Assembly: GCA_028687915.1 (NCBI GenBank)
Contig: JAQTZF010000001.1
Span: 290,634 to 354,633 of the forward strand
Origin: Candidatus Daviesbacteria bacterium
GTDB lineage: Bacteria; Patescibacteriota; Microgenomatia; Daviesbacterales; UBA10151
DNA: 64,000 nucleotides
Direction: 5' to 3'
The notes beneath the pieces were generated by a model, which made no database searches, was not told the DNA's origin, and saw only the letters and a list, made by a program, of their open reading frames with translations. Position 1 is the stretch's first letter. Each line of letters begins with the position of its first letter. The position numbers and the translations under genes are program-made. Positions 21,452 through 59,810 of this stretch are shown here, piece after piece.

Positions 21452-22402
21452 ATGTTAGCTAAGATAATATCTGGAGCAAATGTGGGGATAGAATCTGTTG
21501 CTGTAACGGTGGAAATTGATATTGCTTCACAAGGTTTACCTTCTTTTACTCTGGTAGGATTGGCTGATAGGGCAGTTGAAGAATCAAGAGAAAGAGTGAG
21601 GTCTGCTTTAAAAAATACTGGTGCTGATTTTCCAGCCAAAAGAATTACTGTTAATTTAGCACCAGCTGATTTACCAAAAGTTGGGCCTGCTTTTGATTTA
21701 CCAATAGCTTTAGGATTGCTTATTGCTTCTGGACAGGTGGTAGGGGATTTATCAGACACTATGTTGGTGGGTGAATTATCTCTTGATGGAAGTTTAAGGT
21801 CTACCAATGGGATTTTGGCTTTTACAATTTTAGCTAAAAGTTTGGGTTTAAAAAGAATTTTTGTTCCCCTTGAGAATGCAATTGAAGCAGCAGTGGTGGA
21901 AGGAATAGAAGTATATGGATTTGAAAATTTACTGGAAGTTTTTAATTTCTTAAGTGGAAATTTAGAAAAATCACAACAACCTCTAACAGATTTAGATAGA
22001 AGTGATGATTTATTATATGAATATGATTTTAAAGAAATTAAAGGCCAAAATCAGGCTAAAAGAGCACTTGAAATTGCAGCAGCTGGTGGACATAATGTTA
22101 TATTAAAAGGCCCTCCTGGAGCAGGGAAGACGCTTTTGGCGCGTGCTTTTCCATCTATTTTACCAAAGCTTACTAAAGAAGAATCTTTAGAGATTACCAA
22201 AATTTATTCTGTAACAGGTAATTTATCTAAAGGTTCATCACTAATTACCACACGTCCTTTTCGTTCACCTCACCATACTGCCTCCTATGTTGGAATAATC
22301 GGGGGAGGAAATAATATTAAACCAGGTGAAGTGTCTTTAGCTCATAGAGGTGTATTATTTTTGAATGAAGTGTCTGAGTTCTCGAAGAAATTTTGCTTCT
22401 GA
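21452..22402 (+). CDS. comM: ComM/YifB Mg-chelatase-like AAA+ ATPase, N-terminal fragment, truncated by prophage insertion
   Basis: Lon-like N-terminal domain, Walker A GPPGAGKT and start of Walker B (LAHRGVLFL). The last 12 codons (NEVSEFSKKFCF*) are phage-derived. The remainder of the gene resumes at 59830. Confidence 0.85.
   Translation: MLAKIISGANVGIESVAVTVEIDIASQGLPSFTLVGLADRAVEESRERVRSALKNTGADFPAKRITVNLAPADLPKVGPAFDLPIALGLLIASGQVVGDLSDTMLVGELSLDGSLRSTNGILAFTILAKSLGLKRIFVPLENAIEAAVVEGIEVYGFENLLEVFNFLSGNLEKSQQPLTDLDRSDDLLYEYDFKEIKGQNQAKRALEIAAAGGHNVILKGPPGAGKTLLARAFPSILPKLTKEESLEITKIYSVTGNLSKGSSLITTRPFRSPHHTASYVGIIGGGNNIKPGEVSLAHRGVLFLNEVSEFSKKFCF
22358..22390. repeat. attL: core (22358-22369) plus phage-side integrase core-type arm (22370-22390)
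   Basis: The arm GTGTCTGAGTTCTCGAAGAAA is the near-perfect inverted complement of the arm at 59811-59829. Confidence 0.55.
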
Positions 22403-22554
22403 TCTTCTTAAATTTCCTCTTGCAAAATCTAGGTCTATAACCAGTGAAGCATATTTAATTGTCGTTGTCAAGTGCTTTTTTTCTGACCGCAAAAAGATGG
22501 CATAATGACTATGAACAATGAAGCAGTTATCAGTCCTGCCTCTATAATAAAATC

Positions 22555-23637
22555 ATGAGCTATCAAAAATTCCTCTCGGAATATACGGATTTTATCAGGT
22601 ATGACCGAGACCTTTCTGAGCATACTGTCGAGGTGCGGGAGCAATGGCTCAACCGCTTCTTTCGTGATCTCGGCGACAAGGAATTCACTTTTGAAAATAT
22701 CCGCGAGCATCTTCGAAACTATAAAAGGGGCAATCTCTCTCCGAATTACATCAATGTCCTGGTGACCTCTCTCAACTCCTTCCTGCGATTTCTGATCGCT
22801 GAAAAACACCAACCCCTGGAAGACTTCACCTCCAACCTCAACCAACTGCGCCCGAAGAAAAAGTTCGTTTTGTATCAGACGCTTTCCCTGGATGAGATCG
22901 AGAAGCTGATCAGCCCGCCACCGCGCAAAAATAACTACAATGTTTTCGGCAAGCCCCACCTATATCCGAAGTATAAAAAGTGCGATGAGATGTGGTCGCT
23001 GCTGCTGGAATTTCTCGCAAAGACTGGCTGCCGTCCTGGAGAAGTGATCGATCTCAATGTTGGCGATCTTAACTTTGGCACTGACGAGTTTATAATCCGC
23101 GAGACAAAGACCGATGAGCAGCGCATTGTGCCGATCCCTCCTGACATGACCACGAAAATGCGTGAGTGGATTAAAAGCAGAGGCGAGATTCCGCCTTCCT
23201 CTCCACTGTTTATCACCATGCACTTTGCCAGGACTCGTCCTAATTCCAGGATCGGCGAGTCGATGATCAATAAAATCATCAGGGAGAGAGCCAGGAGAGC
23301 TGGGCTGCATGTCGACAAGCGCTTCCACGCCCATAGTTTCCGCCATTCTTTTGTGACTGAAATGCTCCGCCAGGATGTCGCGATCTCAAAGGTGCAGCGC
23401 ATCGTCGGTCACCGCAAAGTCGACACGACCATGATTTACACCCACATGGTTGTCGATGACCTCCGCCAGGCGATGCTGAAACACCCTCTAATTCGCAAAT
23501 CACAAGACCCGCATGCTATTATCGAGAGCGTGAAAGAGGAGATTAAATCATTCAAATTGCACGGCGACGAGCGTTTTGATTACACATTAACCGAGCGGAA
23601 CGACGGCTTCTCCTTCGAGCTATCCCTTAAGAAGTAG
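22555..23637 (+). CDS. tyrosine site-specific integrase (phage integrase family)
   Basis: 360 aa. Catalytic R…HxxR…Y residues lie in HAHSFRHSFVTEMLR…HRKVDTTMIYTHM. An N-terminal SAM-like domain is present. Confidence 0.9.
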   Translation: MSYQKFLSEYTDFIRYDRDLSEHTVEVREQWLNRFFRDLGDKEFTFENIREHLRNYKRGNLSPNYINVLVTSLNSFLRFLIAEKHQPLEDFTSNLNQLRPKKKFVLYQTLSLDEIEKLISPPPRKNNYNVFGKPHLYPKYKKCDEMWSLLLEFLAKTGCRPGEVIDLNVGDLNFGTDEFIIRETKTDEQRIVPIPPDMTTKMREWIKSRGEIPPSSPLFITMHFARTRPNSRIGESMINKIIRERARRAGLHVDKRFHAHSFRHSFVTEMLRQDVAISKVQRIVGHRKVDTTMIYTHMVVDDLRQAMLKHPLIRKSQDPHAIIESVKEEIKSFKLHGDERFDYTLTERNDGFSFELSLKK

Positions 23638-23647
23638 TTGTATAATT

Positions 23648-24194: not shown

Positions 24195-24206
24195 AGTGAT
24201 TTCGCA

Positions 24207-24479
24207 TTAAAACGGCAATTTATCAACTAGAGCGGTTTTGTCTTCCGATCCGAAGATGTCTCTGAGTAACTTCCCGATGGCGTTCACCCCCGCGACTAAT
24301 CCAGAAAGCAGGAACGGATATGCGAGTAGGGTTTTGAAATTCTCCCAGCTGGCGAATGCTTCCGCTCCTGTATTGATCAGCACTATCGATCCAGTCACAA
24401 AAAAGGCTGAGACAAAAACTCTCAGAAACCTCCAGGCGACTTTCTTCCACTCAGGGTATAGTTGATCTAATGGGTTCAT
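24207..24479 (-). CDS. holin-like protein (2 TM)
   Basis: 90 aa with two TM helices. Lies directly downstream of the endolysin gene with a 4-nt overlap. Confidence 0.45.
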   Translation of the reverse strand: MNPLDQLYPEWKKVAWRFLRVFVSAFFVTGSIVLINTGAEAFASWENFKTLLAYPFLLSGLVAGVNAIGKLLRDIFGSEDKTALVDKLPF

Positions 24480-25588
24480 GCTTTCTTCACCTCCTTTCTA
24501 TTGATTAAATTTTTAATGAAGTTGGTCAATGCTGTGATCACCGCGTTTATGATGCTGGTTTTTACTGGGAGCTGACCCTTCTGACAGGCTTCGAGCTGGC
24601 TTTTGGCAGTTTGAGCCTCTAATAGCGCCCGACCTTTGGCTTTGTTGGCTTCGTCGAGTTCCCCCTCCAGCACCTTCACTCTACCCTCGGCTACCTTGAC
24701 GATTTCAGGCAGGTTTTTGATGTCCTTTTTAAGCGCATCGAGCAGGTCTTTATAATACTTTTCCTTCTCTAGCACTAGCTTTTCGAGTCTGCTAACCTGT
24801 TCGGTTCGGTTGGTGATTTCAGTGTTTGCCACATCGAGGTCTTTTTGCTTCTCTCCCAGCTGGTTTTTCAGGTCAGTTTCCCTCGATTTATACCCTGCAG
24901 CCACACTCTTAACTTTGTCGCTGGGGGTAGTGTTTGGGTCGTCAGTTATCTCAAGAATCTTGAGAGTCTCTGCCCATTTTGTAGCGCTGGCAACTATCTG
25001 CTCGTATTTTGTGCGCCATTCTGGAGTGTTTGGCACAAGGCAACCCTCGGCTGCATCGATTGCTGCAGGCGTTCCTTCATACCAACACCAGGAATAAATC
25101 AATTTCTGAGCTGTCACGCCCCAGCTGGTGATCCTTTTTTCCGCTCCGTCCCAGGGGTCTTGCACTATAAAGTCGTCGCCGTCATAACCGATAGCCAGAA
25201 TCCAGTGTTCGTCGAATGCACTGGTTGAAGGGATCGTGTCGATCTGTAAAAAGACTGGGAAGCCTTTGTCGATTGCTCCTCTGATCTGGTTCATTTGATC
25301 CTGGGTAAGTGCCTGGCTGTTTGACCACTTGCCTGAGTATTTGAGACCCGCAAACAATTTCGGGATCGCTCCCCAGATTAAGAGATTGCCGTCCTGGTAT
25401 CCGCCGTTTTGAGTCATTTTTTCGTTTAAGGTGAGCGGTGTCTCTTTGAATCCGTAATAGCTCACTGACATGGTGGCGCAGTTTAAGAGGCATCCCACTC
25501 CTCCGATTGTGCCTTTTGTCCCCATCGGGCTGTTCTTCCAGCGGGGATCGTTCTGACAATATGTGACTGGTAGTGTTAGTTTTTTCAT
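24476..25588 (-). CDS. endolysin candidate with N-terminal C39-like (papain-fold) peptidase domain and C-terminal coiled coil
   Basis: Cys nucleophile context GGVGCLLNCATM and His context HWILAIGYDGDDFIVQDPW (peptidase_C39_2 / DUF3335-like). About 140 C-terminal residues of heptad-rich coiled coil end in an amphipathic helix. Confidence 0.6.
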   Translation of the reverse strand: MKKLTLPVTYCQNDPRWKNSPMGTKGTIGGVGCLLNCATMSVSYYGFKETPLTLNEKMTQNGGYQDGNLLIWGAIPKLFAGLKYSGKWSNSQALTQDQMNQIRGAIDKGFPVFLQIDTIPSTSAFDEHWILAIGYDGDDFIVQDPWDGAEKRITSWGVTAQKLIYSWCWYEGTPAAIDAAEGCLVPNTPEWRTKYEQIVASATKWAETLKILEITDDPNTTPSDKVKSVAAGYKSRETDLKNQLGEKQKDLDVANTEITNRTEQVSRLEKLVLEKEKYYKDLLDALKKDIKNLPEIVKVAEGRVKVLEGELDEANKAKGRALLEAQTAKSQLEACQKGQLPVKTSIINAVITALTNFIKNLINRKEVKKA

Positions 25589-25592: not shown

Positions 25593-28500
25593 TTATTTGA
25601 AAAGTCCTAGCGGATCATTTCCTTTTGTTGCCCCGCCTCCTGTCGGGAACATTTGCCCCATTGTTGGTTTAGCGGAAGGCGCTGGTGCGCTGCCTCCCAT
25701 CAAACCCAGTGGGTCATTCGCTCTCGGTGCGCTTCCGCCAGGTTTTAACACAGGATTTTTAGTGCCTGCTGGCGCACTGAGTTTGAGTAATCGCTGCATG
25801 TCGCTCGCGTCGAACATCACACTCTTTTGAAAGCTCACCGCTTCTTTTGGATCGTCGGCGAACAGGAGAGGAGTTATCTGCGGGACAATGAGTTTGGCTT
25901 TGTTATTCCAGTCGGTTGCGATCTTTTGGGCTTGCGGTAAATTGCCTGCAGTCAGTGCTTTTTGCACCTGGATTCTGGCGGTGTTGTATCCGACAGTGGT
26001 ATCGTCCAGGAGTTGCCAGGCTGCATTCTCTTTTGCTCCTCCCTGGGTTCTGACGAATCTCTGCAGCGACGCACCAACTAGATCGCTCGGATTGAAGACA
26101 TACTTGCTGCTTGAACCGAATAACCCAGTGGCGATGTGGGCGATTCTCATCGGACTCCATCCGACGGCTCGTCCCAGCATTACTGCCAGAGGTTCTGTCT
26201 TCTCGTTATATTGCTCGGTAGGTGCGACCTTCTCCAATTTTCTCGGAATGATCGGGAATCCTGTAAATAGATTCAAGTTTGTGACTTCTTCGACCAGGGT
26301 TTTCAATGCTGGCGGTAGCGCTCCTCCCAGGAAAGCACTGCCTGATAATTCGCCGTCTCTACTGAAAGGAACTGGTGAGAGTTGGCTTGTCCATTCGACT
26401 GCCAATTTCAGCAGGTTGGCTGGCTCTTGCTTCCTCACATACTCAAAGGCGTATTCGAGCGGATTGTAGAAAATAGCACCCATGTCTCCTTTGGGAATCT
26501 GCAGCACTTTCGGCACTGTTTTGCCTTCCTTGTCTTTTTCAGAGCCTAAAATGATAATGAAATACTGATCCTTTGCCCACTGCGGGATGTCGTCCCAGAG
26601 GTCTTCGTGATTCATGATGTTATAGAAATAGGTGGCGACACCTGGCATGACAATGAGCGCCATTGCTTTGAGTGCCGACTTGAGCGGGTTTTCTTTGAAA
26701 GCATCTTTGACTCTGAGGAGTCCTTGCCAGCGGGCATTCACGAAAGGAATCCACTGGTTGATGATCCTCATCTCTTTGCCTGCTTTTGCAAAATCGACTG
26801 TGGCATTTCGGGCTTCGAAAGCTGCCTCGGTTGTCGTCACTCCTGGCTTGGCAATACCTTTTTTGTAGATGCCCAGTCTCGGCGCGAGTTCTACCGCTTC
26901 AGAGAAGTTGCTAATAAGCTGGAAGGGATTGATGATCGCCTTTGTTTTCGTCCACCAGGATGGCGTGAACAATTCTTTTGAAACAACTGACAGCTGCTTC
27001 GCGTTGCCGATATAACCGCCGTATCCTCCCTGGTTTTTCAAGAAATCATCATAGGCTTTCGACTCCCATTTGAATGCTCCCTTGAAGCCATCCATGAGTC
27101 CTGAGAGCCAGTTGACTGGACTGAAGCCCCACTTCGTCACTATCGATGCGGTCTGGAAGTCGCGGATCGCGTTGGTCAGGGTAAAAGGAATATAGAAGGT
27201 GGTCACACCCGCCTTGAATGCTCTGGTTGATGCCATTGCCAGTTTGCCCATGACGCCTGCCTCAGCTGGACTGAGTGCGTGCATCGCTTCGGACAGCTCT
27301 TTTGGCACAGCCCAGCGCGTCACCTTGCCGTTTATGAAGGCACTGATGGTGTCCCAGTCCTTCGGCGCTTTGGCGTCTTTGTAGAGATATTTTATAAATT
27401 CTTTTGCTTCGGGATGACTCTTTCTCAGATCGATCAATTTCCTGGCGACTTCGTTTCTCTTGGTCAGGTTGATTGCTTTGCTGAGGTTGTCGACGATTGA
27501 TTCAAAAGGATCGCGAATCTGTTTTTCCGTTCCTTTTAATCCCTGAATGACACCCTGTTTGCTGACAGAGAATGTCTCGCTGCCTGCCTGCATCTGGTCT
27601 GCTTGTTTAGCATCAGGTAGGTAGTCGAGGACATGGAATGGCATCCAGCTCTTATTTTTCTCGACAACGGCATTGAATGCCTTTTTGCTGATCAGTCCTG
27701 TGTCTCTCATCGGTTCGAGGATGTTTCGGATCGACCAATTCTGGATCGCTTGCCCTGCCTGTTCGAACTGCTTATAAACTTTCTCGCCGACTTTTTCTTT
27801 CAATTCAGTGAGAGCTTTTTCTCCTGTTTCTTTGGTCACACCTGCTGGGTTGTCGAAGCCTCTGTCGGCTCTTTCGATGGCACGCTGCGCCAGGACATAG
27901 CGGGTGAAGTCTGGTCGGAATTTTCTCACTGGTGAGACGATCTTTTGCAGATCACGGAAAGCGACCTCAATCGTTCCGAATCTGCCCGCGTAGAGTCGCG
28001 CTGCAATATAAGGACTGGAATCAATATCGATGGGGAGTCCCTGCAGTTTGCTGACTGTTTCCTCGAATTGCTTCATAGGAGCATAGCGGTCAGTGAAGTT
28101 TCTGCTAAACCAGGGCTTGACCCCTTTGAGCCAGTCTGCCACTGATGCAGCTTTTCCGAGTTTGCCGACCATTTTATCGATCTGCTCCAGGGCGCTACCT
28201 TCTGGCGGTGGAGGAGCTTGAGTGATCGGTTCTTCTTTTGGTGGTCGTGGTGCGCTTCCTTTCGGAGGAGTCGCCATTTCGTCAGCCCGCATCTTTTTGG
28301 GTGCTTTGACTTTGCCCTGCATTCTCTCCTGGAATTTCTTCAGGTAGGCTTCTTTGTCTTTCATGATTTCGCCAACACTGGGGACACGCTCGGCATCCAG
28401 GAGTTCTTTTTCTTCTGGTCGATATTTAAGTCTGATTTCTTCTGCCTTCGCTGCTTTTTGCTCCTGGGCAGTGAATTGCTGCGCGATCTGATCATCGATC

Positions 28501-30764
28501 TTTTTAATGGCTCGGACGATTTTGTCATCGCCAGGGTTGGAATAGCGCAGTTTTTCGAGAGCATCTTTTTTCAGCTGCAGCTGTTTAACCTGCGGGCTTA
28601 CCTCGCCAGGTTGTTTCTCTACTTTTGGAGGGGTGACCTTTGTCTCAGGAACTGGCGCAGGTGCTGGTTTGGGTTCGGGCGCTTTCACTTCCGCTGGTTT
28701 GACCCAGGGCTTTGTGAATCTGTCGCCGTTTTTCGTCCACCATTTTGCTGCTTCCGTTTCAGGAATTACTTTTTTGTCAAAATAAACTGCTTGAGGTTCG
28801 ATATTGCCAGTCTGAGTGTTCTTGCCCATGAGGTAGGAGACACCAGCTGTCTTGCCTTTTTGTCGGAATATAGAGCCTTTATCAAAAAGACCCGCGTCTT
28901 TGACCGCCACCTTACCGACTTTATCAGTGGAATCGGCATCGAATTGAAAACCCTCAGTCGGTTTTGCGGGAGCTGGGGCAGTGGCTGCCTTGATAGTCGA
29001 CATCACTTTTTTATACCCCTCAATATCGTAGCTTTTGCCCTTAAACATGGCATAAATATCTTTGTATTGATCGTTAGTTATTTTCTGCCCCTGGAATTTT
29101 TTGGCTTCTTCCATGAGATTGAGTTTGCTGTTGACGCCGTTTTTGAGATTATCGATCACCCAGTTGACCACCCCTTTGTTGACAGTCATGTCTCTGGCAT
29201 ATTTATTCGTCTGACCATACTGATTGCGCAGGGTATTCCAGAGAGCTTTGCCATCCTTCCAGGTGGGATTTGTGATCGCGACTTCTTCCGCGATTGCAGG
29301 CGTTTGCTCGGTTGCAGCTGGCGTCTCTTTCAGAGTTGCCGATGGCGCTGCTTCGGGAGTTTTGACTGCTTCAGCGATTGCCATTTCAGGCGTTCCTTTT
29401 GATGGCGTCACCTTGATGTTTTGTTCTTTTGCCAGGGTTATGAGATCGGAGTTTGAAAGTTTGTTTGCTGGTAGTCCGAATTTTGTTTTGACTTCTTCGC
29501 CACCCAGACCCTTGATAACCTCAGCTCGTTGCTCATCGGTGAGTGTGGATCGCACTGAGAGTCCTGCTGGCATGTTTCTGATGGTGCTTACCACTAAGGC
29601 TCGTTTGTCGGGGACATTCACCCACAGCTCGCGGAATAAATCCTCGAACTCCTGGCGGAATGTCTTGCCAGTGTAGCCTGTTGGATTCTGGATTTTCGTC
29701 AAGAACTCATAGGCGCGGTTGGCTGTATTCCATGCCTGATTGAACTGACCCATCTCTTGCGGTGTTTGCATCGACTGAGCTGGGAATTGTTTTGTGATGT
29801 CGACGACCTTTTGTTTCCAGGCAGTTTTGATCTGATCCGCGCTGGCTTTCTCGTTGACTCCGAGATAATCGAATGCCTGTTTTTTAGTGATGCTCAGCTG
29901 CTCGGATGCAGCTTTCTCCATGTTCTTTTCGAGTTGCGCTGCCTGTGATGGGAATGCTTTTGCCAGGGCGTAGTTGGTAGAGTGGAGTGCAATCACTGCT
30001 GCCGTATTTTTCAATGCGTCTTCAGGACTGTCTCCCTTAATAAGTGAGGTGACATAAGCTGCAGGAGCGATGATTCCAGTCGACTTGAAATAACTGGGTT
30101 TCATACCTGCAATAGAAAATGCCCCTCCCAGAGCAAAGTCAGCTCCAAAGTCTTTGGCACGCTGCGAAGCGTCCTTGTAGAACTCTGATTTTTGAACCTG
30201 ACCTAGACCTGCGAAGGTTAAACCATTCGTCAGAAGTGAGTAAGTTTTGGGTGCAATACGAGCGAATCTAGCGACAGCAGGAATCCCTCTGGCTGCGCCT
30301 TGAATCAGCTCTCCGCCCACTAGAAAAGTTGCGACAGTGCCGAGAATGTTAAATTCGACATCGGTCATTTTGGCTGCCATTGCTGCAGTGTCGTCGGCAT
30401 ATTTAATCTCTGGATTCCACCAGCCGAAAGTGAATGCTTTGGCAAGTCCTGTGCCTGCCCCTCCGAGTGCGCCGACTGTGGCGCTGGGGAGTCGTTCCCA
30501 GAACCCTGACTCTCTTGCGCCGATCCCGAATGTTTGTGCTGCCGTCTCGACCCAGAGATTCTCGTAAGGTTTATAGCTTCCGCCTTTGTCTCCAGGGATC
30601 GCGTATTCTGATTGTTTGGTGAGTTCGGCTATCGGTTTGAAAAGATCAGTGGCTTTTGTGCTGACTGGCTTGAAGAAATCGCCCAGTGTTTTTCCCACAG
30701 AAGACACTCCCTTCTCGATAGGGCTTAATATGTTTGTTTTCAGTGTGTCTAAAAAGTTTGGCAT
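25593..30764 (-). CDS. giant virion protein (1723 aa); candidate internal/ejection or tape-measure-like protein
   Basis: Uninterrupted 5.2-kb ORF. Gly-zipper-like hydrophobic segments at the N-terminus and middle, a Pro/Ala-rich linker (KPAEVKAPEPKPAPAPVPE) and a Gly-rich C-terminus. Position is between the tail-fibre genes and the lysis cassette. Confidence 0.6.
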   Translation of the reverse strand: MPNFLDTLKTNILSPIEKGVSSVGKTLGDFFKPVSTKATDLFKPIAELTKQSEYAIPGDKGGSYKPYENLWVETAAQTFGIGARESGFWERLPSATVGALGGAGTGLAKAFTFGWWNPEIKYADDTAAMAAKMTDVEFNILGTVATFLVGGELIQGAARGIPAVARFARIAPKTYSLLTNGLTFAGLGQVQKSEFYKDASQRAKDFGADFALGGAFSIAGMKPSYFKSTGIIAPAAYVTSLIKGDSPEDALKNTAAVIALHSTNYALAKAFPSQAAQLEKNMEKAASEQLSITKKQAFDYLGVNEKASADQIKTAWKQKVVDITKQFPAQSMQTPQEMGQFNQAWNTANRAYEFLTKIQNPTGYTGKTFRQEFEDLFRELWVNVPDKRALVVSTIRNMPAGLSVRSTLTDEQRAEVIKGLGGEEVKTKFGLPANKLSNSDLITLAKEQNIKVTPSKGTPEMAIAEAVKTPEAAPSATLKETPAATEQTPAIAEEVAITNPTWKDGKALWNTLRNQYGQTNKYARDMTVNKGVVNWVIDNLKNGVNSKLNLMEEAKKFQGQKITNDQYKDIYAMFKGKSYDIEGYKKVMSTIKAATAPAPAKPTEGFQFDADSTDKVGKVAVKDAGLFDKGSIFRQKGKTAGVSYLMGKNTQTGNIEPQAVYFDKKVIPETEAAKWWTKNGDRFTKPWVKPAEVKAPEPKPAPAPVPETKVTPPKVEKQPGEVSPQVKQLQLKKDALEKLRYSNPGDDKIVRAIKKIDDQIAQQFTAQEQKAAKAEEIRLKYRPEEKELLDAERVPSVGEIMKDKEAYLKKFQERMQGKVKAPKKMRADEMATPPKGSAPRPPKEEPITQAPPPPEGSALEQIDKMVGKLGKAASVADWLKGVKPWFSRNFTDRYAPMKQFEETVSKLQGLPIDIDSSPYIAARLYAGRFGTIEVAFRDLQKIVSPVRKFRPDFTRYVLAQRAIERADRGFDNPAGVTKETGEKALTELKEKVGEKVYKQFEQAGQAIQNWSIRNILEPMRDTGLISKKAFNAVVEKNKSWMPFHVLDYLPDAKQADQMQAGSETFSVSKQGVIQGLKGTEKQIRDPFESIVDNLSKAINLTKRNEVARKLIDLRKSHPEAKEFIKYLYKDAKAPKDWDTISAFINGKVTRWAVPKELSEAMHALSPAEAGVMGKLAMASTRAFKAGVTTFYIPFTLTNAIRDFQTASIVTKWGFSPVNWLSGLMDGFKGAFKWESKAYDDFLKNQGGYGGYIGNAKQLSVVSKELFTPSWWTKTKAIINPFQLISNFSEAVELAPRLGIYKKGIAKPGVTTTEAAFEARNATVDFAKAGKEMRIINQWIPFVNARWQGLLRVKDAFKENPLKSALKAMALIVMPGVATYFYNIMNHEDLWDDIPQWAKDQYFIIILGSEKDKEGKTVPKVLQIPKGDMGAIFYNPLEYAFEYVRKQEPANLLKLAVEWTSQLSPVPFSRDGELSGSAFLGGALPPALKTLVEEVTNLNLFTGFPIIPRKLEKVAPTEQYNEKTEPLAVMLGRAVGWSPMRIAHIATGLFGSSSKYVFNPSDLVGASLQRFVRTQGGAKENAAWQLLDDTTVGYNTARIQVQKALTAGNLPQAQKIATDWNNKAKLIVPQITPLLFADDPKEAVSFQKSVMFDASDMQRLLKLSAPAGTKNPVLKPGGSAPRANDPLGLMGGSAPAPSAKPTMGQMFPTGGGATKGNDPLGLFK

Positions 30765-50674: not shown

Positions 50675-50865
50675 TTCTGATTCCTCCCTTCCAGTAGTTT
50701 CTCGACATCCTCCCTGCGGTAGCGCCTGTCGCCTCTACTGCCAAAGCGAATCGCTTTGAGGATACCTTTGGCATCCCATTGGCGCAGGGTATTCGGGTGG
50801 ACATTGAGCATCTCACTGACTTCGCTCATTTTCAAAAGATCAGATTGTTTAGTTTGTTTTGCCAT
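50671..50865 (-). CDS. excisionase-family (MerR-like) HTH DNA-binding protein; Xis candidate
   Basis: 64 aa. LKMSEVSEMLNVHPNTLRQWDAKGILKAIRFGSRGDRRYRREDVEKLL matches the excisionase-family HTH consensus. Confidence 0.55.
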   Translation of the reverse strand: MAKQTKQSDLLKMSEVSEMLNVHPNTLRQWDAKGILKAIRFGSRGDRRYRREDVEKLLEGRNQK

Positions 50866-51420: not shown

Positions 51421-51642
51421 CTATATTTCAATACCTGTCGGCTTCGGCGTATCTCCCGCGCTTCCACCATCCTCTGGATCGATGCGTTTCTGCTCGATCA
51501 TCTCTTTGCGGAAGGGTTTGCCGTCGCTGATAAAGATAACGACTCTACCGAATTTCACTCGGCGAATGTCTTCAAGGATAGCCAGCTCTGCTTTGGTTAC
51601 CTTGACCTCTTTGACTGGTATGAATTTATTTGTTTGGCTCAT
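51421..51642 (-). CDS. hypothetical small protein (YezD/DUF2292-like?)
   Basis: 73 aa. Overlaps the terminase stop. Confidence 0.35.
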   Translation of the reverse strand: MSQTNKFIPVKEVKVTKAELAILEDIRRVKFGRVVIFISDGKPFRKEMIEQKRIDPEDGGSAGDTPKPTGIEI

Positions 51643-53185
51643 ATTTATTGCGTTTTTTTAATGCGATCTGCCAGTAGACCAGCGCCAGGAAGAAGTCATC
51701 CGCGCCAGTGTTTGCCCATTCCCGCTTCGTCTGTCCGAACTTGTCAGTCACATTGCGGGCATAGAGAGTTTGGGCATGCTGAATCAGCATTTTGAAGTTA
51801 GGACTGTCGACTTTCATTGCGAATTTAATCTCACCGCGTCTGAGCGCTGAGATCGTGTCGTCGATGATTCTGGTGCGGGAGGAGTAAACCTTCACCTCGT
51901 CAGTCAGTTCTTTGTCTTTGCCTTCCTCCTCATCGAAGAAGCGCACCACTTCGAGCATTTTGGGATCATCCTTAAACCAGTTGAGATATACCCTGTAGGG
52001 GAATTCTTTTGCCAGTGTCCAGGCTTCTTCGGTGTAAGGCTGCCCATCGATTACGACGACTCTGATGTCGTAGAACTTTATAAGGTCTGCTGCCTGCTGG
52101 AAGCGATCATGCCCTGGCTTGTCGGTCAATATACCGATCCAGAAGATTCCTTTTTTATTGCCGATGATGCAGTGGTTGCCTTTGCCCGATCCTTTGCCAG
52201 TATCAATGCCCATGACATTCCATTCTTCGCTGGTGTCGGCTGACTCCTCAGTTATATTGCGCATAAACAGGCTTTGTGGAATTTTTTGATCAGCTGCCAG
52301 GTAAGGAAGACCGAGACAGAAGTTATAAAAATAGGTGTCGTCGTCGGCATCGATGCGCTCCTGGATGAGGTCTGCTGCAGTCTTCCAGGGAACTTGCATC
52401 TGGCTGATCCAGTAGCCAGAAATCACTCTGCCTGGGAAGCGTGCCTCCCAACTGCCCAGCTCGTTGATCTGCTGCGGTGTGATTTCTTTTTTGCATTCCT
52501 GGCAGACATAAATCCCGCGATCTTCATCGACATTCTTTTCCCATTCCATGTGCTGACGGAAGCCACAGTGCGGGCAGTTGAAGCGCCAGTGCTTTTGATC
52601 TGACTGATCAAAGAGTTTATTGATGCCGTAGTCGGGAATGGTAGGAGTAGAAAAATAGTGCTGACTTCTTATTTTTGAAAAGCCCATACGAGAAGCAAAA
52701 TCACGGACGACTTCGGGCTTTGACTTGTCCAGCTCATCGTGGATGTTTCGATCTGAAGACAGCATGATGGCTTCGCGCTCGGTGAATGTTCCTTTGAAAA
52801 AGACGAATGACTTGCCGATTTCTTTTTGCTCGATTGAGTCGGTGCTTTTGGGATTGACCCCCTCCTGGATGCACTCGTTTACTTTGATGATTCTATTGAC
52901 CTTACTTTGCACGAATTTGAGAACATCGTCACCAGTGGGTAGGGTATAAATCTGGTTGATTCCCCAGTAGCGGGCAGCATGAAGGGTGCGGATGATCTCC
53001 ATTGTGCTTGCGCCCACCTGGGAGGCTTTCTGGATGACCTGAATGGGTGTGCGGTCAGCATAAAGATCGAGCATGAAGCGGTGATCCTGGAACTCAATCG
53101 GCTCGCCGTTTTCATTCTTGACCTTATTGTCCAGAATCCAGTGCAGGACGCTGATTTTATTTTTGTTTACTTGTTTTTCTTCCAT
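51626..53185 (-). CDS. terminase large subunit
   Basis: 519 aa. N-terminal ATPase Walker A-like QKASQVGAST. C-terminal nuclease-like acidic residues. Preceded by a small-subunit candidate. Confidence 0.75.
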   Translation of the reverse strand: MEEKQVNKNKISVLHWILDNKVKNENGEPIEFQDHRFMLDLYADRTPIQVIQKASQVGASTMEIIRTLHAARYWGINQIYTLPTGDDVLKFVQSKVNRIIKVNECIQEGVNPKSTDSIEQKEIGKSFVFFKGTFTEREAIMLSSDRNIHDELDKSKPEVVRDFASRMGFSKIRSQHYFSTPTIPDYGINKLFDQSDQKHWRFNCPHCGFRQHMEWEKNVDEDRGIYVCQECKKEITPQQINELGSWEARFPGRVISGYWISQMQVPWKTAADLIQERIDADDDTYFYNFCLGLPYLAADQKIPQSLFMRNITEESADTSEEWNVMGIDTGKGSGKGNHCIIGNKKGIFWIGILTDKPGHDRFQQAADLIKFYDIRVVVIDGQPYTEEAWTLAKEFPYRVYLNWFKDDPKMLEVVRFFDEEEGKDKELTDEVKVYSSRTRIIDDTISALRRGEIKFAMKVDSPNFKMLIQHAQTLYARNVTDKFGQTKREWANTGADDFFLALVYWQIALKKRNKYEPNK

Positions 53186-53756
53186 AGTGGTTTTTGATCA
53201 ACTGATCAATCTCTTTGCCGATTTCGTTTTCCTCCGAAGTAGGAGGCAGCTGCTCTTTCTCATCGATATAATGAGAGACGATAGTTTTCCCAGTAGCTTC
53301 GCCGAACTCTGTCCTGTGCATTTCCCAGAGGTATTTGACATCGAGGACAGTCACATCGGTTTTCTTTGCCTCCCTGCGCAGTTTTTTCAATTTCGAAACA
53401 AGAACATCAGTGACCAGGAATTTTCGCTGCAATCGGAATCGGTCAGTCTCTTGCTTCAGATCGGTGAGTTCTTCCGTGAGCTGCAATTCTGTCCTATCAA
53501 CCCAGCGATATTTTCTCGACCACCTTTCAATCGTTGACTCTGCGGGTTTCTTGCCCAGTCGACTTGTGAATTCCGCCCCCATATCGCCATCGTCCTGCCC
53601 CCAGTTTCTGAGAACCTTTCTTAGGCTGCCGACTTCCACATACAAAAGCCATGCACAATACTGCTGCTCAGTTTCACCTGGCATTTTTTCTGTCGTCAGT
53701 GTCGGCTTTATTGCTGGCACTATTTTCTTTTTAATTTTGGTTTGTTTTTTAGCCAT
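53157..53756 (-). CDS. terminase small subunit candidate
   Basis: 199 aa, basic/helical. Overlaps the large-subunit start. Confidence 0.45.
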   Translation of the reverse strand: MAKKQTKIKKKIVPAIKPTLTTEKMPGETEQQYCAWLLYVEVGSLRKVLRNWGQDDGDMGAEFTSRLGKKPAESTIERWSRKYRWVDRTELQLTEELTDLKQETDRFRLQRKFLVTDVLVSKLKKLRREAKKTDVTVLDVKYLWEMHRTEFGEATGKTIVSHYIDEKEQLPPTSEENEIGKEIDQLIKNHYGRKTSKQK

Positions 53757-55237: not shown

Positions 55238-55396
55238 TTATCGTTCAATTTCTCCAGCAGCTTCTTTTTTAGTAAATGTTCCCTCGTCAACCTCGATCTG
55301 CTTTTTGGTTGCGAGTTCGATCAGGACATAAACCGCCCGACCTTTGGCATCCTTGCGTTTGCCTTCAAAGTGGAACTTTGGCTTTTTATCTGACAT
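55238..55396 (-). CDS. hypothetical micro-protein (52 aa)
   Basis: Self-called. Strong RBS AGGAGGTG 7 nt upstream of the ATG. Confidence 0.4.
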   Translation of the reverse strand: MSDKKPKFHFEGKRKDAKGRAVYVLIELATKKQIEVDEGTFTKKEAAGEIER

Positions 55397-55766
55397 ATTT
55401 CTTCACCTCCTTTATTGGTTTGATTTTTATAATGACTTTGTTTTCCTTCGTGCCATTGACCGCCTCGGTAGTGACCCGCCTGACAAAACGAGTGTCGTCT
55501 TCTTCGATCAGTTTGTATTTCAAGCCGTCGATGTAGAGCTTGCTGGCGATGTTATCGCTGTCGCGGTGCAGGTTGTTTTTGTAGTAGGCAATGATTGTGA
55601 TGTCGACTGGCTTCGTAAAAATCTTTCTCTCGCGCGGGAGAGCAGCTGCGACGAAACTGTGAATCTCCTGGGCAAGCTCCTGGCGTCGTGACCAGTGCTT
55701 CTGCTCATAGAGAGCATTCCAGCTGACTGCCTGGTGATCTGTTATTGTGAGTGTGACTTGTTTCAT
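55386..55766 (-). CDS. RusA-like Holliday junction resolvase
   Basis: 126 aa with a D-x-D-N acidic catalytic motif (HRDSDNIASKLYIDGL) in the characteristic position for RusA-family crossover junction endodeoxyribonucleases. Confidence 0.55.
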   Translation of the reverse strand: MKQVTLTITDHQAVSWNALYEQKHWSRRQELAQEIHSFVAAALPRERKIFTKPVDITIIAYYKNNLHRDSDNIASKLYIDGLKYKLIEEDDTRFVRRVTTEAVNGTKENKVIIKIKPIKEVKKYVR

Positions 55767-56261: not shown

Positions 56262-56978
56262 TTATTTTGCGAGCGCCCTTTCGTTTGCTCTGATTAAAAT
56301 TTCAATGACTTCTTTGTTTGTGCCAGTCGCTGTCTCCAGGAGTTTCTTCAGCTCATCGATGCTCTTTTGCATCTGCTCTTTGGTTTTGTTGGCTGGTAGG
56401 TAGTCAGTTAGGTTTTCCATGTTTTTTATAAATTCCCGATCCTGAAGATCGGTAACCACCGCTTGAACCGCTGCCACCCAGTTGGTCGTGTTGCAGCCTG
56501 CACTTGGGGGGCAATACACATTCGCCAAATCCTCGACTCGATCTGTTTGGCGGAATCGACTGTAATAAGATTTCGTTGCAATTCCTTCGGCGACGGACTG
56601 GCAGCTGGCTTCAAGTGAGGAATAGTGAGTTTTGCAGCTGTTCCAGCCGAAGGGGTTGCCTCCGCATGCGTTCTTACCAAAGCTGCTCTCAATGTTTGTG
56701 ATGCCGACCAGTAAATACGGATCGACATTGTTATCACTGCCACAGTCCACGAAGACATGACTCTGACCAGTGAGTGGGCTGCTTTCCTCAGACAGGCGCT
56801 CAGCCACAATCGCAATGCGAGGATCGGGTTCAGGGGTAGGGGTCGGTGAAGTAATCGGCTGAGCCGTCTGAGTGTTTTTCGATATTGGCGATGTGCGGTA
56901 TTTTTCATATACGATTTTGGCTGTGATGCCCGCGACTGCCAGTAAAATAAATAGGATTAGAATTAGTTTTTTTCTCAT
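56262..56978 (-). CDS. secreted protein, possible lysozyme-like (SLT-type) transglycosylase
   Basis: Signal peptide/TM. LVGITNIESSFG…GGNPFGW resembles the E-S catalytic motif region of lytic transglycosylase family 1. The assignment is weak. Confidence 0.4.
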   Translation of the reverse strand: MRKKLILILFILLAVAGITAKIVYEKYRTSPISKNTQTAQPITSPTPTPEPDPRIAIVAERLSEESSPLTGQSHVFVDCGSDNNVDPYLLVGITNIESSFGKNACGGNPFGWNSCKTHYSSLEASCQSVAEGIATKSYYSRFRQTDRVEDLANVYCPPSAGCNTTNWVAAVQAVVTDLQDREFIKNMENLTDYLPANKTKEQMQKSIDELKKLLETATGTNKEVIEILIRANERALAK

Positions 56979-58009
56979 AGTTGTGCATGCTTTCCTTGTG
57001 CGCCTGCCTTCCCTGGCTCGTTGGCGAAGCGCCAGTAAAATAACTTCTCTCGATCTCGGATGTTTTCCGCGTCCTTGCAGTAGCTGAGAGCTGTCTGAAG
57101 CCGACCTTGTTTGCCGTTTTTACAAGCCAGTTGAATGTGTCTGAAGAAATTGCGGGAGGGAGTGCCTTTTAAGCCCAGCTCCTCCCAGTAGCGCAGCGCT
57201 TCTACCTGGAATTCATGGGTGATTTTGGTGCTGGGACTCTGAGTATCAAAATGAGACTGGTGTTTTTTTAAGACATCGCCGATACTGGAGACTGTGTTTT
57301 TCTTTTCTGGTAGGGGGTGCTGGTAAGTGCCTTCGCAGTGTGTCCCGCCTAGTGGATCGGGATCAGTGCAGCCGTTGCAGTTGCCATTCGGAGTGCGGTT
57401 GTAGGGTTCTTTTAAGGCTAACTCTTTGGGTTTATCCCCAGAGTTATCCACATTTTTATCAATTACGGAGGCTTCAGCCTCAACAGTGTTTTTACTTTGT
57501 TTATTTATACTTTGTCTATTTATCTTTTGTCCTTGCTCTTTAGCTAACCCCCCCCTTGTTCTTTGACAACCCCCCTCGTTCTTCTTTGATGATCCCCCCC
57601 AGGTAAAAACAGGGTAGATATAGCGATGAGTCCCTGATTTATCGCGCTCAACTTCGATCCTGATTTTGCCCTTTGCAGCGAGTTCTCTTAATGGACGATT
57701 GACTGATTGCTCTGCCACTCCGATGGTGCGACCCAGGTATTTATTCGTGGCGTAGCAGAAGCCAGTCTGACGACTCAATGCGATGATCCCGCCATAGAGA
57801 ATCTTTGCCAGCTGGGAAAGGTCTTGACTCTGGAGAATTTCAATCGGAATGACGACAAAAAGACTGGACTCGCTGCGCCCGACATCCAGCCCCGCTTTAT
57901 AAGTTTGCTGAACCATGTCGAGGACTGCCGTCAGCTGCTCGCCTTTGAAAAGAGGGAGGTATTTATCGACTAACTCGTTTGGCACTGTCTGGTTGACTGG
58001 TTTTTTCAT
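56975..58009 (-). CDS. replication initiation / replisome-organizer-like protein (winged HTH)
   Basis: The N-terminal wHTH motif LSQLAKILYGGIIALSRQTGFCYATNKYLGRTIGVAEQSVNRPLRELAAKGKI is typical of phage DnaD/replication-initiator N-domains. Confidence 0.45.
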   Translation of the reverse strand: MKKPVNQTVPNELVDKYLPLFKGEQLTAVLDMVQQTYKAGLDVGRSESSLFVVIPIEILQSQDLSQLAKILYGGIIALSRQTGFCYATNKYLGRTIGVAEQSVNRPLRELAAKGKIRIEVERDKSGTHRYIYPVFTWGGSSKKNEGGCQRTRGGLAKEQGQKINRQSINKQSKNTVEAEASVIDKNVDNSGDKPKELALKEPYNRTPNGNCNGCTDPDPLGGTHCEGTYQHPLPEKKNTVSSIGDVLKKHQSHFDTQSPSTKITHEFQVEALRYWEELGLKGTPSRNFFRHIQLACKNGKQGRLQTALSYCKDAENIRDREKLFYWRFANEPGKAGAQGKHAQL

Positions 58010-59136
58010 TCCGTTTTCCCTCCTTTCCTGTTTTTCAAAAATTGATCAAACTTATTTCCTGGTTTTTGTGGGTAGTAGAGAGCCTGACATTCCTTTGAGC
58101 AGAAGCCATTCTCTCCAGCGACTGAAGGATCGACTGGTTTTTCGTGGCATTGCGCACACATCCTGGGTTCTTCTTTCTTTTCCTCTGCTTCGACTGGCTC
58201 TGCTTCCTGGACTGGGGCAGTTTGTGCTGCTTGCTCGGCAACAGTTGCTTCGCCGTTACCTTTGCCAGCGATTCTTTTGGGAGGATTGCTTTCACCAACT
58301 ACTTCGAAGGCTTCCTGGAGTTTTTCCGTTAGCTGATCGATCTGCACTCCTGTCAGCTCAGTGATCGATTCGACCTGATAAAGTTTGGCGATTGCCTGGT
58401 GCAGTCGTGTCTCATCAAAACCTCTGGGGTGTGCGACGGCATGGAGCTTCTTGATCTGGTTTACTCTGACTGGGTCTTGCGCTTTGGTGGTGGGTGCTGG
58501 CTCAGCATCCGAGACTTCCTCCAGGAAGATGTCGCTTGCCATCGTCGCGGTTCTTACTGCAGCAACAAGCGCCCGCTTTTGTGCCATCGATTGGATGGTG
58601 TTGGCGTCATCAGCGCTTTCTTCTGGGGAATTTTTAACTTTGAGATAGGTATTAGTGTATCCGCGCTCCTGCTTGGTGAATTTCGAAACAAAGTTTGCTT
58701 TCTGATCAGCTGTCGCGAAGCGCTCGGCGACTGTGGTGTAGAGATATTTTTTCTCCCTGGAATTGCAGCTTCTCTCTGCCTCTCCTGCAGGGATTGTCTT
58801 AGCGTCGTATATTTCGATCTGTCCGTCGACGACTCTGGTGAGGGGAATGTTTCGACTGAGTTTGCACAGGTAGCGATAATAGAAAAAGCCTTTCTCCCAG
58901 TCTTCGACTTCTTTGGTCAATTCAAACTCTGGGGCAAGCCCGAAGAATTTCGCGAGTTTCTCAGCTCCTGGCTGCAGCAGTGTCTTTTTATTCGTCCCTG
59001 GGATCACACCAAAGTCGACCCCTTCTTTCATCTGGGACTTGACCAGCTTTCTGATGTCCTTCTTCTCAGTGCCGAATTGCTCCAGCTCCTGGGCGGGTTG
59101 GACTATGGTTAGGCTTTGCTCTTTATTTTCCGTCAT
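58006..59136 (-). CDS. putative single-strand annealing/recombination protein with C-terminal Cys4 zinc ribbon
   Basis: 376 aa. The N-domain motif DFGVIPGTNKKTLLQPGAEKL is recombinase-like. The C-terminus holds CAQCH…CSKEC. Family assignment (ERF/Rad52-like) is uncertain. Confidence 0.35.
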   Translation of the reverse strand: MTENKEQSLTIVQPAQELEQFGTEKKDIRKLVKSQMKEGVDFGVIPGTNKKTLLQPGAEKLAKFFGLAPEFELTKEVEDWEKGFFYYRYLCKLSRNIPLTRVVDGQIEIYDAKTIPAGEAERSCNSREKKYLYTTVAERFATADQKANFVSKFTKQERGYTNTYLKVKNSPEESADDANTIQSMAQKRALVAAVRTATMASDIFLEEVSDAEPAPTTKAQDPVRVNQIKKLHAVAHPRGFDETRLHQAIAKLYQVESITELTGVQIDQLTEKLQEAFEVVGESNPPKRIAGKGNGEATVAEQAAQTAPVQEAEPVEAEEKKEEPRMCAQCHEKPVDPSVAGENGFCSKECQALYYPQKPGNKFDQFLKNRKGGKTE

Positions 59137-59371
59137 ATTTTTGAATGCAACTTATAGGTGAGCCGTTATAAAAGCACTGACACTTTGCCAGCCATTCAGC
59201 ATTTCCGCTGACTTTAGCGCTCCTGCAGTTCATGCGATCCTGGTTTTCGAGAGTGGTATCCAAACCAGTGACGAATGCGTAGCTCATAACCAGTGCGAAA
59301 ATAACCATCAGAATCAATGAGCCGATGCCTAACTTCTCCCTGGGTTGTCGTCTTTGCGCGTAGTCGATCAT
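59123..59371 (-). CDS. small membrane protein
   Basis: 82 aa with one TM helix and Cys-rich periplasmic tail. Confidence 0.4.
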   Translation of the reverse strand: MIDYAQRRQPREKLGIGSLILMVIFALVMSYAFVTGLDTTLENQDRMNCRSAKVSGNAEWLAKCQCFYNGSPISCIQKYDGK

Positions 59372-59739
59372 TGCTGCCCCTCCTTTCCGAAATCGATAAT
59401 CCCTAATTTCTCCATGTCTTCCGCCAACTCCTCGATGATCTGGTAAACACGCTCCCTGGACTTGACGCCGTATTTTTCGCCCAGTTCTTCAAGGGTTAAA
59501 AACAATCGGCGATAGTCGTTGAGGATATTGCGGTCACGCTCCCAGTTTTTGGAGATGTGAGAACAGAGAATTCTGTCTATGGTTTTGGCATCTTTGCCAG
59601 GGTGGAGGTCAACAATCTGCTGCAGGGAAAGTCCTGCGAAGTAATCTCTTAAAATGTCTTTGTTAGCTTCCCAACTAAAAAATCGCTTGACATTTCGTCT
59701 TCTTTGCGTTTTAATGTGGTGCAATCTTTGGGCAGTCAT
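59368..59739 (-). CDS. sigma-70 region-4-like HTH regulator (first gene of the rightward-to-leftward phage transcription unit)
   Basis: 123 aa. LTLEELGEKYGVKSRERVYQI resembles a sigma region 4 / LuxR-type HTH. Confidence 0.4.
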   Translation of the reverse strand: MTAQRLHHIKTQRRRNVKRFFSWEANKDILRDYFAGLSLQQIVDLHPGKDAKTIDRILCSHISKNWERDRNILNDYRRLFLTLEELGEKYGVKSRERVYQIIEELAEDMEKLGIIDFGKEGQQ

Positions 59740-59810
59740 ATGGTTTTGACGACCCTAGATTTTTGATAATTTAGAGAGATTTTTAGGAAGGGTTAGAAGC
59801 CTTTTTTATT

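Follow-up and report, generated by a model that had tools for sequence, protein, structure and literature searches.

The 64,000-nucleotide stretch of Candidatus Daviesbacteria DNA analysed here (the window) carries, inside the host gene comM, a genuine temperate tailed phage of 37.5 kb that appears to be intact and has an SU10-type capsid. Both the base composition of this prophage and its profile of missing palindromes belong to a phage clade and not to the host. The explanation that we regard as probable is that the element represents a family of uncultured, abundant phages that lysogenise bacteria of the Microgenomates group within the candidate phyla radiation (CPR), and that these phages keep a composition of their own while moving among divergent hosts.

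Integration of a prophage into comM

The element occupies positions 22,358 to 59,829 (37,472 bp with one copy of the attachment core counted; 47.7% GC), and all of its genes except two lie on the minus strand. To its left, the N-terminal part of host comM (yifB) runs along the plus strand from 21,452 to 22,357, up to the attachment core, with matches to Pfam ChlI and to Mg_chelatase at profile positions 1–121. To its right, the C-terminal part (FLDELPEF… to the stop) occupies 59,830–60,444 (+) and matches Mg_chelatase at positions 111–206 as well as Mg_chelatase_C. The left part comprises 306 codons, and the open reading frame (ORF) called there extends to 22,402 by way of about 11 codons supplied by the phage (ending in …FLNEVSEFSKKFCF and a stop). 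When the two parts are joined at the core, they yield a protein of 506 aa (1,521 nt), which is the length of the intact homolog, and Mg_chelatase positions 1–206 are recovered in one stretch. Thus, comM was split without loss of sequence.

An empty version of the same site is available in a relative (L040/L041; 35.1% GC) whose ComM is 92% identical and whose comM is uninterrupted, with the same neighbours on both sides. The left part of the window comM is 80–83% identical at the nucleotide level to intact L040 comM up to the core and random past it, and the right part is 82–87% identical downstream of the core. Genes for RecA, RecX, RNase Y, HU, TrpR, MiaA, a permease, a DUF1003 protein, an MGDG-synthase-like protein and a histidine kinase are shared upstream of comM, and genes for DUF4446 and DUF3048 proteins are shared downstream.

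The attachment sites agree with this picture. The window has just two matches to the core motif TTTYTGRATGAA where 0.23 would be expected, and these are attL (TTTTTGAATGAA, 22,358–22,369, +) and attR (TTTCTGGATGAA, 59,830–59,841, +, also identified by comparison with attB and attP). The core encodes F-L-D-E, which we take to be the Walker-B motif of the ComM AAA+ domain, and the comM target is conserved at the nucleotide level even among very divergent hosts. In the empty-site relative L040, attB reads GTATTA-TTTTTGGATGAA-TTACCAG. In L035, an unintegrated member of the clade in which the right-end genes are joined directly to the integrase gene, attP reads GTTTCGAGGACTCTCA-TTTCTGGACGAG-TTGTCGGAGT. 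Since core position 4 is of the host type in attL but of the phage type in attR, and since divergence sets in after ATGAA, strand exchange can be placed within the 8-bp segment TGGATGAA. All four sites are mutually consistent, with attL and attR being the products expected of recombination between attB and attP.

In attP, the core is flanked by an 11-bp inverted repeat. Its P′ half (GAGTTCTCGAA, 22,376–22,386, +) is the perfect reverse complement of its P half (TTCGAGAACTC, 59,816–59,826, +), and the pair is conserved in the attP of L035, where 10 of the 11 bases are complementary and one change is compensated. The P′ half is a candidate core-binding site for the integrase. A search of IMG/VR with a degenerate pattern for the attP arms gave no match; attP was obtained from a metagenome scan by integrase alignment. 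Many relatives are on contigs of 36–37.7 kb.

At core position 7 of attL (22,364), inside the exchange segment, G is replaced by A (TGAATGAA, compared with TGGATGAA in attR, attB and attP), which changes the Asp codon of F-L-D-E to Asn. G occupies this position in attB, attP, attR and every relative, and the substitution therefore probably arose after integration. It may block excision, and may be the first step to a locked-in prophage. The direction of the change also agrees with the AT bias of the host.

Could the junctions instead be an artefact of assembly or binning, in which a phage contig of ~48% GC was misjoined into a CPR contig of 34% GC? Composition and k-mer signature do change abruptly, as such a chimera would predict. 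However, the flanks hold the two halves of a single gene, which together are exactly as long as the intact homolog, the 92% identical relative has an uninterrupted comM between the same neighbours, and attL and attR have the structure expected from attB and attP. In addition, the same comM junction is present in four more hosts (L016/L017; L020/L021/L023; L022, which is the complete Woesebacteria Ch104b genome; and L036) and was recovered in independent assemblies of at least four other datasets (ENA, JGI, NCBI and Logan). We consider a chimera, which a preliminary description of this DNA had named as an alternative, to be refuted by these observations and its probability to be close to nil. 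The same description had called the element a prophage, as its virion and packaging genes, its integrase and its attL and attR sites confirm.

Phage and host composition across the clade

The composition changes in a step at both junctions. GC content is 33.6% in the flanks (1–22,357 and 59,842–64,000) and 47.7% in the element (22,370–59,829), an offset of 14 points. In a 1-kb profile, GC is ~30–37% up to 22 kb, 44–51% from 23 to 59 kb and 32–36% past 60 kb; finer profiles place the rise at ~22,550–22,600 and the fall at ~59,700–59,800. At third codon positions the offset widens to 31 points, with a GC content (GC3) of 21.7% in 27 host ORFs (range 0.16–0.31) and 52.4% in 40 ORFs of the element. 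Tetranucleotide z-scores correlate at 0.32 between host and element, compared with 0.59 between the two halves of the host sequence and 0.88 between the two halves of the element, so that the k-mer signature of the window is not uniform. The element is also asymmetric between strands: its minus (coding) strand has 32.4% A and 19.9% T with almost no GC skew, and the AT skew of the plus strand reaches −0.46 per kb, all genes but two sharing the minus strand.

The preliminary description had reported a sharp discontinuity of this kind, with GC3-rich codon choice in the phage and AT3-rich codon choice in the host, and in both respects it was correct. Its boundaries of 22,400 and 59,800 fall within ~45 bp of the att cores. 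Its figures were less accurate. The 50–55% GC that it gave for the element is ~3–7 points too high, and the line offered as an example (26,041–26,100) does have 55% GC but is above average for an element whose 60-nt lines have a mean of 47.7% and a 5th–95th percentile range of 33–58%. Likewise, the offset is real, but the proposed gap of 15–20 points overstates the 14 points found for GC and falls short of the 31 points found for GC3.

The proposal that the host is a CPR organism was well founded. The major capsid protein matches MDD2822802.1 ('MAG: DUF5309 family protein [Candidatus Daviesbacteria bacterium]'), which is encoded on a contig of 1,096,538 bp, at 100% identity. A host gene confirms this assignment: among homologs of the host ComM, the best (506 aa, 'Microgenomates group bacterium') is 92% identical and is followed by many from Ca. 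Daviesbacteria at 70–80%. The accompanying statement that integrated prophages are rarely documented in CPR bacteria is out of date, since CPR prophages have been published for Roizmanbacteria, Paceibacteria and others (PMC6509639, PMC12455944, PMC12911398), and at least 17 distinct integrated copies belong to the family of the window phage alone in the loci that we examined.

This family is large, with 365 homologs of the capsid protein at E ≤ 1e-10. The named hosts of these homologs are Daviesbacteria, Beckwithbacteria and Woesebacteria, and integrated copies are also found in Shapirobacteria, Gottesmanbacteria and other Patescibacteria genomes. Within the clade that targets comM, integrases are 70–91% identical, capsid proteins 86–88% and the large LPD38-domain proteins 71–78%. 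The hosts of the clade are far apart: the N-terminal parts of their ComM proteins share 52–61% identity with one another and 42.5–46% with E. coli YifB, and identity is 38–53% for their MiaA, permease and RNase Y proteins.

Despite this spread of hosts, the phages are nearly constant in composition. Phage GC is 47.7% in the window host (33.6% GC), 48.2% in L016 (host 40.4%), 47.6% in L020 (host 37.4%), 46.8% in L022 (host 39.5%) and 47.5% in L036 (host 47.0%), and the GC3 of the clade is ~0.50–0.59. Across 14 prophage–host pairs of the wider family, phage GC (41.8–48.2%) does not correlate with host GC (33.6–52.5%; r = 0.11, p = 0.71), and in one Gottesmanbacteria host the phage lies 8 points below its host. 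The Daviesbacteria host of the window, at 33.6%, is the most AT-rich among those sampled. In general, the GC content of phages correlates with that of their hosts at R = 0.90 and is usually somewhat below it (PMC5989581).

We also looked for signs that the element is drifting toward the composition of its host. On the branch leading to the window phage, the ratio of GC>AT to AT>GC substitutions is 1.01–1.08 (three triplet comparisons over 6.1 kb, ~12% divergence). There is no drift toward AT, and the test for an excess of GC>AT changes on the branch of the resident element therefore came out against an ameliorating island. These results sort the two explanations raised in the preliminary description. 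A broad or unusual host range finds support at the level of the lineage, given phages of 46.8–48.2% GC in five hosts of 33.6–47.0%. There is no need to invoke, as a special event, a very recent acquisition from a host of different composition, since the GC offset is the rule in the clade; the integration itself does appear young relative to amelioration, since substitutions on the branch are balanced and both halves of comM are intact.

Some genome titles point elsewhere. L023, L027, L028, L029, L031, L033 and L034 are in metagenome-assembled genomes (MAGs) titled 'uncultured Pseudomonadales' or 'Gammaproteobacteria', among them an isolate named 'PATE-16' and another contig that is a single 0.95 Mb node. 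These labels look wrong and could mislead host assignment: the host ComM of L020/L023 is 61% identical to the Daviesbacteria protein versus 43% to E. coli YifB, and the miaA-permease-comM synteny is shared. The titles bear on the idea of a phage with two hosts, one that replicates mainly in the bacterial partner of the CPR bacterium (a basibiont of ~48% GC) and occasionally enters CPR cells. Binding and weak infection of a CPR epibiont by a phage of its basibiont are on record (PMC13578794). Conservation of the comM Walker-B core extends well outside CPR, and the seven titles would also fit. Nevertheless, the titles appear to be mislabelled, as the ComM of the testable host, L020, indicates, all informatively named hosts are Microgenomates CPR, and among the loci examined, none of the integrated copies lies in a genome that is demonstrably non-CPR. 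A dual-host phage is therefore very improbable.

Two further observations concern the relatives. An identical 388-aa capsid protein (P0135) is recorded under both Ca. Beckwithbacteria (KKU71158.1) and Ca. Daviesbacteria (OGE29538.1) MAGs and occurs on 37 contigs, the longest of 37,671 bp. These could be free phage genomes that were binned into different candidate phyla, or the phage could truly be shared. In L025, six tRNA genes (Leu-CAG, Phe-GAA, Gly-GCC, Val-TAC, Leu-GAG and Gln-TTG) lie at 17,296–17,988, at the GC change-point that marks the edge of a Shapirobacteria prophage. Four of the six read GC-ending codons, and there is no integrase on the side of the array. A role for the array as phage tRNAs serving GC-ending codons was considered and dropped; the array may belong to the phage or to the host, and the window element has no tRNA gene.

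Palindrome avoidance and a proposed turnover of hosts

The second property that sets the phage apart from its host is a loss of short palindromes. The element contains no GGCC, CCGG, GTAC or ACGT, for each of which 121–137 copies are expected from base composition and 37–107 from a Markov model. The span free of all four runs from 22,252 to 60,056 and brackets the element. Among 6-bp palindromes, 40 of 64 are absent from the element, compared with none in shuffled sequences and 5% of non-palindromic hexamers; setting aside those that contain one of the four 4-mers, 24 of the 48 independent 6-bp palindromes are missing. The ratio of observed to expected hexamers is 0.57 for palindromes and 1.01 for non-palindromes in the element, and 0.79 for palindromes in the host flanks. 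The flanks are not purged, with 20 GGCC sites (20 expected) and 23 CCGG sites (20 expected). Not all palindromes are depleted in the phage: GATC (250 copies) and TCGA (275) occur at about twice the frequency expected from base composition. The purge explains the very high internal consistency of the tetranucleotide profile of the phage.

The pattern varies among relatives. All members of the comM clade lack GGCC and CCGG, and most also lack CGCG. The window phage differs from its relatives in keeping 83 CGCG sites while having neither GTAC nor ACGT. Six 4-mers are completely absent from the relative L013, and more distant relatives show no such purge (the relatives compared included L001, L016, L020, L022, L035 and L013). 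The purge evolves quickly while GC content stays put. We infer that it reflects selection to avoid type II restriction, of which it has the classical signature at the level of sequence. Many CPR genomes encode type II restriction-modification systems (PMC13578794), and CRISPR-Cas is rare in CPR (PMC6509639). We also considered the GC shift as a by-product of the purge and rejected this, because AT-rich and GC-rich palindromes are purged alike; in addition, the unpurged distant relatives are still offset from their hosts.

How, then, did a phage of ~48% GC come to reside in a genome of 34%? One answer would be a single, very recent jump by a narrow-host-range phage of some host with ~47–48% GC, in which case the mismatch would be a transient accident. 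The branch of the window phage shows no detectable amelioration, both halves of comM are intact, and one clade member, L036, does reside in a host of ~47% GC that matches the phage, all of which such a jump would predict. However, four of the five clade members are in hosts 7–14 GC points below the phage, so mismatch is the norm. The window phage has an avoidance profile of its own, with 83 CGCG sites kept and GTAC and ACGT gone, and this implies a long independent history. Furthermore, an orphan ORF in the element with AT-rich third positions suggests earlier contact with AT-rich genomes. We judge a one-off jump to be quite unlikely.

It is also possible that selection or an intrinsic bias on the phage itself keeps its GC content steady, independent of host switching, acting for example through codon use and translation, packaging and ejection, or an unrecognised replication or repair function. 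That the GC of the clade is nearly constant (46.8–48.2%) despite 24–31% nucleotide divergence fits this idea, as do the balance of forward and reverse substitutions and the strong asymmetry of the coding strand (A 32.4% versus T 19.9%) and the lack of a recognised function for about half of the ORFs scanned. On the other hand, scans against Pfam and PHROGs detected no polymerase, repair or nucleotide-modifying gene, distant members of the family span 35–49% GC, and a GC-rich genome should be costly in AT-rich hosts that depend, as CPR bacteria do, on nucleotide salvage. On balance this explanation is unlikely.

We therefore favor a lineage of phages that retain their composition by moving among hosts. 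The tyrosine integrase recombined attP with comM of a Ca. Daviesbacteria genome, with exchange in TGGATGAA, and the insertion split a gene for a helicase of natural transformation. According to this model, the composition step arises because the clade holds ~47–48% GC whatever the composition of the host. Most probably, the lineage moves among compositionally different CPR hosts faster than mutation pressure in any host can reshape its genome, so that each integration would be young relative to amelioration. An attachment core that is universal among hosts, together with the purge of palindromes, may permit these changes of host. Disruption of comM may in turn keep transformation from removing the prophage, a benefit that has been suggested for other elements inserted in this gene.

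Several points weigh against this model. The GC content of the hosts of relatives was taken from only 3–10 kb of flanking sequence, and the junctions of L024–L034 were placed by the GC change-point alone, which biases these loci toward finding a GC difference. The nearest relatives are only 69–76% identical at the nucleotide level and no single phage genotype was seen in two hosts; 'host switching' is thus to be understood as an inference about lineages and not as a measured host range. Composition is not fixed over long times, as the GC of the family spans 35–49% (35% in the IMG/VR relative L012), and polarisation of substitutions by parsimony at 70–76% identity is subject to multiple hits. 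No phage DNA polymerase was detected in the Pfam and PHROG scans, so the phage should share the replication errors of its host, and a stable GC content would be unexplained if residence times are long. The substitution in attL could mean that this copy is no longer able to excise. Finally, a scan of the 10 largest host ORFs in the flanks (26.5 kb) found no restriction-modification gene, and so restriction is a putative cause of the purge.

A bolder form of the model, which we put forward only tentatively, is that an undescribed and widespread clade crosses Microgenomates lineages at the level of candidate phyla (Daviesbacteria, Woesebacteria and others), aided by an attachment site on the near-universal Walker-B codons of comM and by the palindrome purge, with which it would escape the restriction systems that CPR bacteria rely on, and that this turnover of hosts decouples its composition from theirs. 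If so, the clade would include an unusually broad-host-range temperate phage that could act as a vehicle for gene flow and possibly as a genetic tool across CPR.

Gene content and known relatives

At the left end of the element, the 360-aa tyrosine integrase (22,555–23,637, +) matches Pfam Phage_integrase (1.6e-31) and Phage_int_SAM_1. Its homologs are 56–91% identical and were found beside a truncated comM or attP wherever the DNA context was read. The genes that follow are on the minus strand. A 370-aa protein with a C39-like peptidase domain (24,476–25,588; Peptidase_C39_2, 6.6e-13) is retained in all relatives at 59–83% identity and is probably related to lysis or the cell wall. It is followed by a giant virion-associated protein of 1,723 aa with an LPD38 domain (25,593–30,764; Pfam LPD38, 3.3e-23; phrog_9854, 3.8e-66), a tail fibre protein of 439 aa (32,128–33,447; phrog_892, 7.3e-25) and an 862-aa protein with a C-terminal N-acetylmuramoyl-L-alanine amidase domain (35,662–38,250; Pfam Amidase_2, 3.5e-19; phrog_822 and phrog_1493, amidase/endolysin). 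The SU10/DUF5309-type major capsid protein (395 aa, 41,210–42,397) matches Pfam SU10_MCP at 4.8e-41, with a score of 141.6 bits against a cutoff of 24.1. The match of the 622-aa portal protein (44,971–46,839) to SU10_portal is weak (21.2 bits; cutoff 30), its position is conserved, and its relatives are 43–85% identical. A large terminase subunit of 519 aa (51,626–53,185; Pfam GpA_ATPase, 1.8e-19; ~25% identity to the large terminase subunits of cultured phages by tblastn) and a small subunit of 199 aa (53,157–53,756; phrog_6299, 2.7e-08) complete the hallmarks of a prophage. The phage is probably short-tailed.

Between the portal and terminase genes, also on the minus strand, is the orphan ORF of 128 aa (47,056–47,442), which has a host-like GC3 of 0.29 compared with ~0.52 for its neighbours. 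It has no PHROG or Pfam match, homologs are missing from all relatives, even from the closest, L001, which spans the region, and it is a candidate moron gained recently from an AT-rich genome. Next to it are genes for a Staphylococcal-nuclease-like protein of 330 aa (47,540–48,532; Pfam SNase, 5e-22; 78% identical in L001) and a YceG/MltG-like protein of 379 aa (49,375–50,514; Pfam YceG, 2.9e-67; present in L001, L011 and L013). A 64-aa DNA-binding protein of the MerR/HTH_17 excisionase family (50,671–50,865; MerR_1, 3.7e-12; HTH_17, 3e-11) is a candidate Xis or regulator. We considered 50.5–51.6 kb as a possible non-coding feature and rejected this, as the interval is filled by small minus-strand genes that include this excisionase-type protein.

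Toward the right end are minus-strand genes for a RusA-like Holliday junction resolvase (55,386–55,766; phrog_34, 2.2e-15), an O-like/DnaD-like replication initiation protein (56,975–58,009; phrog_2880, phrog_270 and phrog_186; Pfam HTH_36) and a helix-turn-helix protein (59,368–59,739; Pfam Sigma70_r4, 3.2e-4, below cutoff). The last is the first gene of the leftward operon, and its homolog abuts attP in L035. No methyltransferase was detected in the element with Pfam and PHROGs, and a tRNA scan found no tRNA gene.

Relatives among cultured phages are remote. The best cultured match of the capsid protein is Roseobacter phage CRP-810, at 30%, and that of the large terminase subunit is at ~26%. 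The SU10-type phages (CRP-810; Pseudomonas 119X, PaP2 and PaMx41; Caulobacter Kuura) share the fold family of the capsid, with a weak signal for the portal. However, identities are only 22–30% for the capsid protein and ~25% for the large terminase subunit, and their hosts are Proteobacteria, cyanobacteria and Clostridium. A test for relatedness to cultured SU10-like (Kuravirus-type) podophages at the level of genus or family was negative. The search of viral databases that had been suggested for the terminase and capsid genes thus gave no host assignment from cultured phages, all at ≤30% identity, and did give one from metagenomic relatives, which are in CPR.

The closest parallel by host is with the phages and prophage of Roizmanbacteria, which also belong to Microgenomates-group CPR bacteria and were recovered from metagenomes (Chen et al., 2019, PMC6509639). 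Those phages are ~30 kb, some are Podoviridae-like by capsid phylogeny, and an integrase-bearing prophage was shown to circularise (PMC6509639). By description they differ from the present clade: their GC content of 32.5–32.9% matches hosts of ~31%, in contrast to 47–48% in hosts of 34–47%, and neither comM targeting nor a palindrome purge is reported for them (PMC6509639). Another instructive case is Xhp1, a prophage of Schaalia odontolytica that binds TM7x (PMC13578794). It too is a CPR-interacting phage with the composition of another organism; unlike the element described here, which is in CPR chromosomes in every case examined, it is integrated in the basibiont.

Among the integrative elements that insert into comM, the AbaR islands are Tn7-like transposons and are not known to be driven by an integrase. 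Such islands sit in comM of A. baumannii (PMC11441513). ComM is a helicase of transformation (PMC6158740). Elements that target its gene are described from Aggregatibacter, Acinetobacter, Mannheimia, Francisella and Pseudomonas syringae (Croucher et al., 2016, PMC4774983), and insertion there has been proposed to shield the element from curing by transformation (PMC4774983). As in those cases, the present mobile element lies inside the comM frame, at a position conserved across divergent hosts, and inactivates the helicase. Compared with their published descriptions, including that of the CF65_00446 group, it differs in having CPR hosts and in being a complete tailed phage.

A temperate tailed phage that targets comM is, accordingly, an already known kind of element. 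What is new relative to the literature searched is the Microgenomates family, the attachment site on the Walker-B motif, the decoupling of GC content across hosts of 34–52% and the depth of the purge. Avoidance of restriction sites is classical in phages: T7 lacks many 6-bp sites, Staphylococcus phage K lacks GATC and Bacillus phages lack GGCC. As in these examples, the window phage wholly lacks certain short palindromes that should number in the tens to hundreds, and related phages lack different sets. In contrast to them, the breadth is unusual for a genome of 37 kb and 48% GC (four 4-bp and 24 further 6-bp palindromes absent), and the CPR setting is new.

These features have practical consequences. 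Host prediction and binning by composition assume that phages resemble their hosts, and the clade breaks this assumption by up to 14 GC points (31 at GC3). Its members would be misassigned or dropped from CPR bins, and identical capsid genes are already binned in different candidate phyla. The clade also suggests, in concrete and testable form, a way for one kind of temperate phage to lysogenise streamlined hosts that are very divergent: an att core on an invariant ATPase motif. The insertion disables a gene for transformation, although DNA uptake is considered important to such organisms, and the depth of the purge indicates the strength of restriction-modification in the conflict between CPR bacteria and their phages. 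If hosts are indeed switched, the integrase and its att pair would be a candidate tool for putting DNA into intractable CPR bacteria.

The host flanks carry a PFOR operon and genes for an acetyl-CoA synthetase fusion, RecA, RNase Y, DUF2079, HtrA and DUF3048 proteins. The DUF2079 membrane protein (11,226–12,611, −) and the HtrA-like protease (20,072–21,352, −) are encoded in the window host and absent from the syntenic L040, a difference that reflects small-scale gene gain or loss around the integration site. The fusion is a 958-aa protein (2,711–5,587, −) that combines an ADP-forming acetyl-CoA synthetase (CoA-binding, succinyl-CoA-ligase-like and ATP-grasp domains) with C-terminal FAD-/NAD-binding oxidoreductase domains, and its gene adjoins the PFOR-type operon. 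RNase P RNA is encoded at 16,699–16,988 (+) and is compact, as the preliminary description had stated, with 290 nt for a model of 367 positions (95.2 bits, E = 1e-29). Its score is just under the Rfam gathering score of 100, so that it was missed at that threshold and recovered by an E-value search. A gap syntenic to this rnpB exists in L040 (6,602–6,983).

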